A stretch of DNA of 64,000 nt from assembly GCF_056712565.1 (NCBI RefSeq), contig NZ_CM160072.1; one strand, 5' to 3'. Numbering within the stretch: position 1 is the stretch's first letter; each line of letters starts with the position of its first letter. Positions 36,278-39,200 of this stretch are shown in pieces. Position numbers: made by a program.

Positions 36278-39200
36278 TTATCCTTTTACGCACACCACCT
36301 GACGCAGGGTATAGATAACTTCCACCAGATCGCTTTGTGCCGCCATCACCGCATCAATATCTTTATACGCCATCGGGATTTCGTCGATCACCTCGGCATC
36401 TTTACGGCACTCCACATGCGCGGTGGCACGGATTTGATCTTCCACACTGAACAGTTTTTTCGCTTTAGTACGGCTCATTACCCGCCCGGCACCGTGGCTG
36501 CACGAACAGAACGACTCTTCATTTCCCAGCCCACGGACGATAAAGCTTTTCGCCCCCATCGAACCGGGAATAATTCCATATTGACCAGCACGCGCAGACA
36601 CCGCGCCTTTACGCGTCACATAGATCTCTTCGCCAAAGTGCTGTTCTTTTTGCACATAGTTGTGGTGACAGTTGATCTCTTCCATCGCCAGCGTTTGTGG
36701 CTGTTTTACCGTTTTCTGCGTAACGCTCTGCAACGCCGTTACCACGTTTTCCATCATCGCATCGCGGTTAAGGCTGGCAAAAAGCTGCGCCCAGGCCACG
36801 GCTTTCAGGTAATCATCAAAGTATTCCGTACCTTCCATAAAGTACGCCAGGTCACGCGATGGCAACGTTTCAAGCGTTTCCTGCATCTCTTTTTGCGCCA
36901 GATCGATAAAGTAAGTTCCGATGGCATTACCGATTCCGCGTGAACCGGAGTGCAGCATAATCCACACCTGGTCCGACTCATCAAGGCAGATTTCAATAAA
37001 GTGGTTACCCGTTCCCAGCGTTCCCAGGTGTTTATAGTTGTTAGTGTTAAGGAAACGGGGATATTTTTGCGTTAACCACTGATAACCGGCTTCCAGCTCA
37101 GCCCATTTCGCATCGACGTTAACAGGCGGATTTTCCCATGCGCCTTTATCACGTTTACAACGCCCGGTAGTACGTCCGTGCGGTACGGCCGTTTCAATCG
37201 CCTGACGCAGCTCTGCCAGGTTTTCAGGCAGGTCCGCCGCCGTTAACGCGGTACGCAGTGCGTTCATTCCACAGCCAATATCCACGCCCACCGCCGCCGG
37301 AATAATCGCCCCTTTGGTCGGGATCACGCTACCAATGGTGGAACCTTTACCCAGGTGTACATCAGGCATTACCGCAATATGTTTGAAAATAAACGGCATC
37401 TTCGCGGTATTAATAAGTTGCTGACGCGCATCGGCTTCTACCGGCACGCCTTTGGTCCACATTTTTACCGGAGCATTTTCAGTGGTCAGTAATTCGTAAT
37501 TCATTTTGTTTTTCTCTTTTCGTTGTTTGCTGTCCTGATAATTGCAACCGTCGTGCCAGAAAATCAAATAAGCATCTTAATTTTTTAATTCATTGTTTTT
37601 AAAAATATTATATTTTTACGTCCGTAAACGGAGATTTCCCGCAAAGCCGATTTACCGATAATGAAATCTCGTCTTTTATAAGGATATCTAAGATGCGTAA
37701 AACAGTGGCTTTTGGCTTTGTCGGAACGGTGCTGGATTATGCCGGGCGCGGCAGTCAGCGCTGGTCAAAATGGCGTCCGACACTCTGTCTATGCCAGCAA
37801 GAATCGTTAGTTATCGATCGGCTGGAATTATTGCACGACGCCCGCTCGCGCTCGCTGTTTGAAACGCTTAAACGCGATATCGCCAGCGTTTCGCCAGAAA
37901 CAGAGGTAGTGGGCGTTGAGATTGAACTGCATAATCCGTGGGATTTCGAAGAGGTTTACGCCTGCCTGCATGATTTCGCCCGTGGTTACGCGTTCCAAGC
38001 TGATAAAGAAGACTATTTAATTCACATCACCACCGGTACCCACGTCGCGCAGATTTGCTGGTTTCTGCTGGCAGAAGCGCGTTACCTGCCCGCCCGGTTG
38101 ATACAATCTTCACCACCGCGCAAAAAAGAGCGGCCCGATAGCCCTGGCGCAGTGACGATTATCGATCTCGATTTAAGCCGTTATAACGCCATCGCCAGCC
38201 GCTTTGCCGAGGAACGCCAGCAAACGCTTGATTTTCTTAAGTCCGGCATTGCCACGCGTAACTCCCACTTCAACCGCATGATTGAGCAGATTGAAAAAGT
38301 GGCGATAAAATCCCGCGCACCGATCCTGCTTAACGGCCCGACCGGTGCAGGTAAGTCATTTCTGGCACGACGCATCTTCGAGCTAAAACAGGCGCGGCAT
38401 CAGTTTAGCGGCGCGTTTGTGGAAGTGAACTGCGCCACCCTGCGCGGCGATACCGCCATGTCGACGCTGTTTGGTCATGTGAAAGGCGCGTTTACCGGGG
38501 CGCGGGAATCGCGTGAAGGATTATTACGCAGCGCCAACGGCGGAATGTTGTTTCTTGATGAGATTGGCGAACTGGGCGCAGACGAACAGGCGATGTTGCT
38601 GAAAGCCATTGAAGAGAAAACCTTTTACCCGTTTGGCAGCGATCGCCAGGTGAGCAGTGATTTTCAGCTTATCGCCGGAACGGTGCGCGATTTGCGCCAG
38701 TTGGTTGCCGAAGGCAAATTTCGTGAAGACCTGTACGCGCGAATAAATCTCTGGACCTTCACCTTGCCAGGATTACGCCAACGCCAGGAAGATATTGAAC
38801 CGAACCTGGATTATGAAGTGGAGCGCCACGCCTCACTCACTGGCGACAGCGTGCGTTTTAACACCGAAGCGCGGCGTGCCTGGCTGGCCTTTGCGACCTC
38901 TCCCCAGGCAACATGGCGCGGTAACTTTCGCGAACTTTCTGCCAGCGTCACGCGGATGGCCACCTTTGCCACTAGCGGACGCATCACACTGGATACGGTG
39001 GAAGATGAGATCAACCGTCTGCGCTATAACTGGCAGGAGAGTCGCCCTCCACGCTTACGGCGTTGCTGGGCGCAGAGGCAGAAAACATCGATCTCTTCGA
39101 CCGTATGCAACTGGAACACGTTATCGCTATCTGCCGCCAGGCAAAGTCGCTTTCTGCTGCCGGACGTGAACTGTTTGACATTTCGCGCCAGGGTAAAGCC

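Follow-up and report, generated by a model that had tools for sequence, protein, structure and literature searches.

The rtcBA operon of the genome under study is preceded by an intact sigma-54 promoter, and the divergently transcribed gene for its activator, rtcR, carries a very recent one-base deletion. The reading that we favour, with a probability of about 0.85, is that a known rtcBA promoter stands beside a young rtcR frameshift, that promoter and operon are intact without any need of selection, and that inducibility is probably lost or reduced. The window analysed is a stretch of 64,000 nucleotides, and the features of the rtc locus found in it are listed in Table 1.

Table 1. Features of the rtc locus, in coordinates of the window
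Feature	Position	Strand	Basis or remarks
rtcA, RNA 3'-terminal phosphate cyclase, intact, 338 aa	35258..36274	minus	Pfam RTC and RTC_insert; PGAP start
rtcB, RNA ligase, intact, 408 aa	36278..37504	minus	Pfam RtcB 1-426/426, E=1e-133; sole stop is terminal
Predicted transcription start, C37532 (preceded by A37533)	37532	minus	Spacing from -12; 28-nt leader
Sigma-54 (-24/-12) promoter of rtcBA, CTGGCACGACGGTTGCA	37543..37559	minus	GG at 37557-37556, GC at 37545-37544
Rest of the rtcB-rtcR intergenic region, AT-rich	37560..37692		Literature and alignment
rtcR pseudogene, 1,598 nt instead of 1,599	37693..39290	plus	Alignment; PGAP "frameshifted"
Frameshift site, CCC instead of CCCC	39045..39047	plus	First altered residue 453
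Out-of-frame remnant of the RtcR C-terminal DNA-binding domain, HTH-like (native residues 453-532)	39049..39287	plus	

The promoter and the genes that it serves

An exact -24/-12 consensus on the minus strand had been claimed by the sequence-only reading, and the motif TGGCAC-N5-TTGCW is indeed matched exactly at 37558-37543. The 16-nt core is TGGCACGACGGTTGCA, and the C at 37559 that precedes it gives the 17-mer entered in Table 1; the minus strand around the promoter reads, 5' to 3', tttCTGGCACGACGGTTGCAATtatc. The GG and GC doublets are exactly 10 bp apart inside the motif. The site also satisfies the extended sigma-54 consensus YTGGCACGrNNNTTGCW.

The exact motif is found once in the window, both strands considered, and this single match is the rtcB site. 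The number of exact matches expected by chance is 0.18 per window, and at least one match was obtained in 16 of 100 dinucleotide-preserving shuffles; when one mismatch is allowed, 5 matches are found against 3.4 expected. At the scale of the window the promoter motif by itself is only weakly significant. Its specificity comes from placement, because it lies in the 188-bp divergent gap between rtcB and rtcR, is oriented towards rtcB, and places the -12 GC at 37545-37544, leaving a short leader. The promoter is upstream of rtcB and co-oriented with it, and the predicted leader measures 28 nt to the ATG at 37504. The ApC (-1/+1) primer for native PrtcBA (PMC9650030) agrees with A37533/C37532.

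The element is already known, being the canonical rtcBA promoter for sigma-54 as defined by experiment. The K-12 sigma-54 ChIP-seq site OS35 has the sequence CTGGCACGACGGTTGCA and is attributed to rtcB, 28 nt away (PMC4591121), and the same sequence appears, with array data, among known sigma-54 promoters, again for rtcB (PMC2831329). The assignment to rtcBA made from the sequence is confirmed by the identity of both 17-mer and 28-nt distance to these two entries. PrtcBA of E. coli K-12 is credited to Genschik et al. 1998 in PMC7790460 and PMC9650030, and sigma-54 dependence has been reported for the orthologous Salmonella rtcBA promoter (PMC3844500). Compared with the K-12 locus, the 17-nt core, the strand, the 28-nt distance and the divergent rtcR are all identical, and a few SNPs flank the promoter in the intergenic region; the real difference resides in the activator gene. 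In spite of its consensus look, PrtcBA in its native form has been reported to show very low activity in vitro, and certain stimuli raise rtcBA without RtcR (PMC9650030).

The promoter is widely conserved. Of the 5,426 complete E. coli genomes, 4,485 match a 30-bp segment around the motif exactly along 28 nt or more. When E. coli and Salmonella are aligned, 22 of the 23 columns running from CCTGGCAC to TTGCAAT are identical, and the Salmonella promoter core has one spacer change relative to E. coli; the intergenic surroundings are largely diverged.

The upstream activating sequence of RtcR and an IHF site have been placed by the literature in the rtcB-rtcR intergenic region (PMC9650030, PMC9879122). 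The rtcR promoter is presumed to lie within 37560..37692, by analogy with the divergent arrangement of Salmonella. A simple scan of 37400-37800 for sigma-70-like promoters gave no match; the scan is insensitive and missed the presumed rtcR promoter too. An 8-nt perfect inverted repeat, GAGATTTC/GAAATCTC (37631-38 / 37663-70), was considered as RtcR enhancer and discarded, being imperfect in K-12 and absent in Salmonella.

Both rtcB and rtcA had been regarded as intact from the sequence, and this holds: Pfam matches are full-length, and the encoded proteins (WP_001105471.1 for rtcB, WP_001350819.1 for rtcA) have the same accessions in UTI89, where rtcR is intact. The same two accessions are found in S88, which is equal to the window over 35200-39300. 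An alternative ATG for rtcA is present at 36277.

The rtcR frameshift and the segment that is lost

The tract that reads CCC in the window reads CCCC in every intact allele examined (K-12, O157:H7, B2 FDAARGOS_1253, UTI89, IHE3034). The frame-1 rtcR ORF stops at 39252 and encodes 519 aa, of which 452 are native and the last 67 are out of frame; the codons for the native C-terminus run on in a different frame to 39290. The frameshift, suspected from the beginning, is a genuine one-base deletion: the change from C4 to C3 at 39045-47 occurs in 39 independent complete assemblies, and the PGAP label "frameshifted" is attached to rtcR in every carrier opened. The pseudogene is already annotated as "frameshifted" in RefSeq/NCBI, and is a case of ordinary gene decay. 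That the C run might serve programmed frameshifting or phase variation was set aside on sequence grounds only, as there is no slippery heptamer and a run of 3-4 nt is too short.

Members of the RtcR family (NCBIfam equivalog NF038308) are organized as CARF, AAA+ and HTH domains. The CARF regulatory domain (Pfam PF06956, residues 2-185, E=6.5e-85) and the sigma-54 AAA+ domain (PF00158, residues 187-354, E=7e-51, with the lid extending to ~442) are both kept in the window product, as well as the Walker A motif GPTGAGKS at residue 215 and GAFTGA, the sigma-54 contact loop, at residue 265. Residues 1-452 score 755 bits against NF038308, whose cut-off is 650. The profile is covered over positions 1-452 of 530, versus 1-529 of 530 in K-12; positions 453-530, corresponding to the HTH, are gone, and the 67 out-of-frame residues are found instead. 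The C-terminal HTH DNA-binding domain of the family is missing from the window product. The cognate activator gene does stand next to the operon, divergently oriented, but its reading frame breaks at codon 453 and the DNA-binding domain is gone; the product is probably not a functional activator, although it may retain some residual activity.

The lost segment looks like an HTH fold resembling the DNA-binding domains of NtrC and Fis, as judged from structure modelling and from published descriptions of the protein. It is kept in all 79 distinct full-length RtcR homologues examined. In an alignment of 43 sequences drawn from these, the motif NDADRLRK and an L located two residues on are invariant, and the intervening Y is nearly so. 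The AlphaFold model of the segment built on the 43-sequence alignment has a pLDDT of 83. The assignment leans also on the description of RtcR as CARF + AAA+ + HTH (PMC7790460), because the HTH nature of the segment was detected neither by Foldseek nor by Pfam; with the threshold relaxed to E<=10, Pfam still gave no HTH match to the C-terminal part of the intact K-12 protein. A BLASTP comparison of the RtcR C-terminus to Fis aligns just LRKYLARFGL with LRKKLKKYGM (E=0.048). When AF2 was run on the C-terminus as a single sequence, the model was poor (pLDDT 55) and gave meaningless Foldseek matches; it was discarded. Similarly not used was the cluster representative P0056, which has 519 aa as the window product and matches it at 471 of 519 positions, and carries an extra earlier shift. 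Further truncated RtcR variants are found among protein clusters of E. coli, Shigella and Salmonella.

Age of the allele and decay of the rtc module

An exact match to the 81 bp around the frameshift site was found in 39 of 5,426 complete E. coli genomes, from human, poultry, swine and dog sources and from several continents. Thirty-one genomes show no difference from the window along 35200-39300 (100% identity). Among these are S88, the type strain ATCC 11775 / JCM 1649 and avian O1/O2:K1:H7 isolates, along with isolates from humans, swine, ducks and dogs. APEC O1 has the frameshift plus one extra change in rtcR.

UTI89 and IHE3034, in which rtcR is intact, differ from the window by a single C over the whole 4,101 bp (35200-39300). 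UTI89, IHE3034, NU14 and others are one base longer than the window over the locus, CCCC having been confirmed in UTI89 and IHE3034. These two are ST95 strains. The window genome falls within the B2/ST95 extraintestinal pathogenic E. coli, in one of their sub-lineages.

The sequence-only reading had presented the promoter as kept despite the broken activator, and this part does not stand. Zero other substitutions separate the locus from its sister strains UTI89 and IHE3034, which sets an upper 95% bound of ~7e-4 per site on the divergence. For the 16-bp motif less than 0.012 changes would be expected under neutrality, with a probability of ~0.99 of being untouched and of ~0.01 of being altered. 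The rtcR frameshift is very recent, and promoter and rtcBA are intact because it is so young that no time has passed. As retention is the neutral expectation, conservation of the promoter in this lineage is uninformative on selection.

Further decay of the module is found in other genomes. SF-088 (USA), AH21I008 (Australia) and CEA212U (France) carry the frameshift together with the rtcB changes W134* and S188L. The rtcB allele marked by W134* and S188L occurs in six genomes in all, and the three examined carry the rtcR frameshift. The nested nonsense mutation counts as a single event, and the six genomes that share it are not enough to demonstrate that selection has been relaxed.

A much larger set of 565 genomes shares one deletion junction, between 14-bp repeats, that corresponds to 3,247 bp of the window (35675-38921). 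The deletion takes rtcR codons 1 to ~410, the promoter, all of rtcB and most of rtcA. One member of this set is strain 81009, which belongs to ST131 (PMC5823992). Its rtcR remnant is 99.5% identical to the window and still features CCCC (394 nt vs 393 nt), and the 3,247-bp deletion is therefore independent of the frameshift. The window and the deletion lineage have in common the locus, the close similarity of sequence and the loss, in the window a probable one, of RtcR-dependent RNA repair; in the latter, in contrast, promoter and rtcB are also gone, as the result of a separate event. Evidently these lineages can do without the Rtc module.

Expected outcome, other readings and significance

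Sigma-54 promoters require an activator ATPase. RNA polymerase carrying sigma-54 binds the rtcBA promoter as a closed complex, and occupancy is still expected in the window genome; opening needs ATP hydrolysis by the divergently encoded enhancer-binding protein RtcR. The loss of one C from CCCC at codon 452/453 swaps the HTH-like DNA-binding domain for 67 unrelated residues, and the truncated RtcR would most likely no longer be able to assemble on the enhancer. Stress-induced transcription of rtcBA would then be lost or strongly reduced, the complex staying closed. The operon would now evolve neutrally, and in some carriers further decay has already set in. RtcR is the activator of rtcBA and binds an upstream site (PMC9650030, PMC9879122).

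Judging from the sequence, rtcBA is probably non-inducible or poorly inducible in this genome. Functional loss is favoured because rtcB nonsense is found with the frameshift and a whole lineage has deleted the module. The earlier label of "transcriptionally silent" seems plausible, if overstated, because what is lost is only the DNA-binding domain, CARF, Walker A and GAFTGA are kept, and activation from solution is known for proteins of this type.

In the reading built on such activation the promoter would not be an orphan: RtcR, though truncated, would still sense damaged tRNA ends and act on the promoter from solution, and the operon would keep a reduced inducibility and still be under selection. 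Everything needed to sense the ligand, hydrolyse ATP and contact sigma-54 is kept, and no fewer than 31 of the 39 carriers have an undamaged rtcBA. Other enhancer-binding proteins, engineered or natural, that lack a DNA-binding domain are PspF 1-275 and Helicobacter FlgR. A close parallel is DctD250, a heterologous AAA+-only activator without DNA-binding domain, to which the Salmonella rtcBA promoter responds with a 16-fold increase in a reporter assay and a 71-fold increase on an array, no enhancer being involved (PMC3844500); regulatory and AAA+ domains without HTH are similarly what is left in the window. Proteins of this kind, however, are stable, and often over-expressed or without inhibitory N-terminal domain, whereas the RtcR of the window still has its repressive CARF domain and ends in a nonsense tail. 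The 67-residue tail may in addition destabilise the protein. Activators working from solution usually fall short by a factor of ~10 and have to be present in larger amounts, and DctD250 was about ten-fold less efficient than the cognate enhancer-bound activator at another promoter (PMC3844500). The weakness of the native promoter in vitro (PMC9650030), the conservation of the C-terminal domain with its invariant core in 79 of 79 full-length homologues, the rise of rtcB W134* in frameshift genomes and the loss of the module from a large lineage, the last two arguing for dispensability, all weigh against it as well. Action of the truncated protein on rtcBA is on this balance unlikely. A bolder version of it, in which the frameshifted RtcR is a natural ligand-gated, enhancer-independent activator that would switch on rtcBA from solution upon tRNA damage, and might cross-activate other sigma-54 promoters, is quite unlikely.

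It is very improbable that the promoter is under selection for a role independent of RtcR, for instance by responding to another sigma-54 activator, or because bound holoenzyme serves as roadblock or regulator of the rtcR promoter; the present analysis turned up nothing that positively speaks for such a role. E. coli has roughly a dozen sigma-54 activators. Sigma-54 was found on the site without activation in ChIP-seq (PMC4591121), and rises of rtcBA independent of RtcR are reported (PMC9650030), but cross-activation without the cognate enhancer is generally weak (PMC3844500), the absence of substitutions in 4.1 kb leaves no conservation signal in the lineage, and the 565-genome lineage that includes ST131 has lost the promoter entirely. 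Even less credible, and extremely improbable, is that the frameshift is a homopolymer sequencing or assembly error and the activator is intact. The loss of one base from a short run of C does belong to the class of errors made by some platforms, but 3-4 C are too few for a systematic homopolymer error, and the identical allele was obtained in 39 complete genomes by many laboratories and platforms over ~20 years, the carriers including two Sanger-era genomes, S88 and APEC O1, as well as the type strain as kept in two collections. The allele is moreover phylogenetically coherent, the sister strains UTI89, IHE3034 and NU14 being one base longer, and three isolates from different countries share the frameshift together with a further rtcB mutation. 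The preferred reading remains that of a known promoter beside an activator gene recently broken.

Taken in itself the finding has little weight, as the promoter is a textbook one and the pseudogene had already been flagged in RefSeq. The useful by-products are limited to the ST131 deletion and to the near-isogenic UTI89/S88 pair, and their practical value is modest. At the 4.1-kb locus UTI89, IHE3034 and NU14 (intact rtcR) and S88, APEC O1 and ATCC 11775 (frameshifted rtcR) form a natural near-isogenic pair, which makes a clean test of the contribution of the RtcR DNA-binding domain possible. Users of ATCC 11775 should be aware that rtcR is defective in the type strain. If the enhancer-independent activity of the truncated RtcR were true, the promoter would be neither orphaned nor silent in a sub-lineage that includes the type strain of E. 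coli.

A text search of the open-access literature found no paper joining rtcB and ST131, or rtcR and ST95. Transient tolerance to ribosome-targeting antibiotics has been reported for Rtc RNA repair (PMC12606134). In extraintestinal pathogenic E. coli the Rtc system is broken or deleted both in the 565-genome lineage that includes an ST131 strain and in the sub-lineage that is nearest to UTI89 and IHE3034.

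Inactivation of rtcR and loss of the rtc module

Besides the frameshifted allele, many further truncated RtcR variants of 411-507 aa are found as small protein clusters, hosted by E. coli, Shigella boydii and Salmonella enterica. This suggests that rtcR has been inactivated repeatedly and independently in enteric bacteria. One common 3,247-bp deletion, between 14-bp direct repeats, was identified in 565 of the 5,426 complete E. coli genomes compared, ST131 strain 81009 among them. The sigma-54 promoter is lost with it, together with the whole rtcB and the 5' part of rtcA on one side and about 410 rtcR codons on the other. 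No open-access paper containing both terms, rtcB and ST131, was retrieved by text search.

Six genomes feature the rtcB changes W134* and S188L. The rtcR frameshift is also present in all three of the W134* genomes examined (SF-088, AH21I008 and CEA212U), and the rtcB lesions look like a secondary decay of the operon, later than the breakage of its activator.

Features of the rtc locus and of RtcR homologues
Feature	Window position	Remarks
Deleted segment	35675-38921	missing in the deletion-lineage locus L005 (NZ_CP030337.1)
rtcB changes	37103 (C>T) and 36942 (G>A)	loci L008-L010 (SF-088, AH21I008, CEA212U)
Perfect 8-nt inverted repeat, GAGATTTC-N24-GAAATCTC	37631-37638 / 37663-37670	immediately upstream of rtcR start
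Convergent glpR-family gene	39272-40030	minus strand
Overlap of rtcR and glpR-family 3' ends	39272-39290	19 bp
Truncated RtcR variants		protein clusters P0011-P0025, P0029, P0040-P0057

Sequences flanking rtcR and rtcBA

The inverted repeat in the rtcR-rtcB intergenic region is perfect only in the lineage of the window: K-12 and O157:H7 each show a single mismatch, and Salmonella does not preserve it. Conservation with Salmonella is seen in the block adjoining the rtcR ATG, CGTCTTTTATAAGG..ATCTAAGATG. At the opposite end of the gene, the native rtcR frame overlaps the glpR-family gene, so that glpR limits the changes open to the final codons of rtcR.

In O157:H7 TX 265-1 a DUF1778 / GNAT-acetyltransferase gene pair, presumably a toxin-antitoxin pair, is located between malT and rtcA (positions 484-1238 of locus L004), and is missing from both the window and K-12. 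O157:H7 also has slightly longer versions of rtcB and rtcA.

Strains sharing the frameshifted allele

The exact allele of the window was found, with 100% identity over 4.1 kb, in the laboratory strains EV36, KMS2001 and KMS2005 (hits H11-H15). EV36 is presumably a K-12/K1 hybrid. If this holds, the K1 donor DNA transferred reaches as far as the rtc locus, and the defective rtcR of EV36, KMS2001 and KMS2005 would be inherited.
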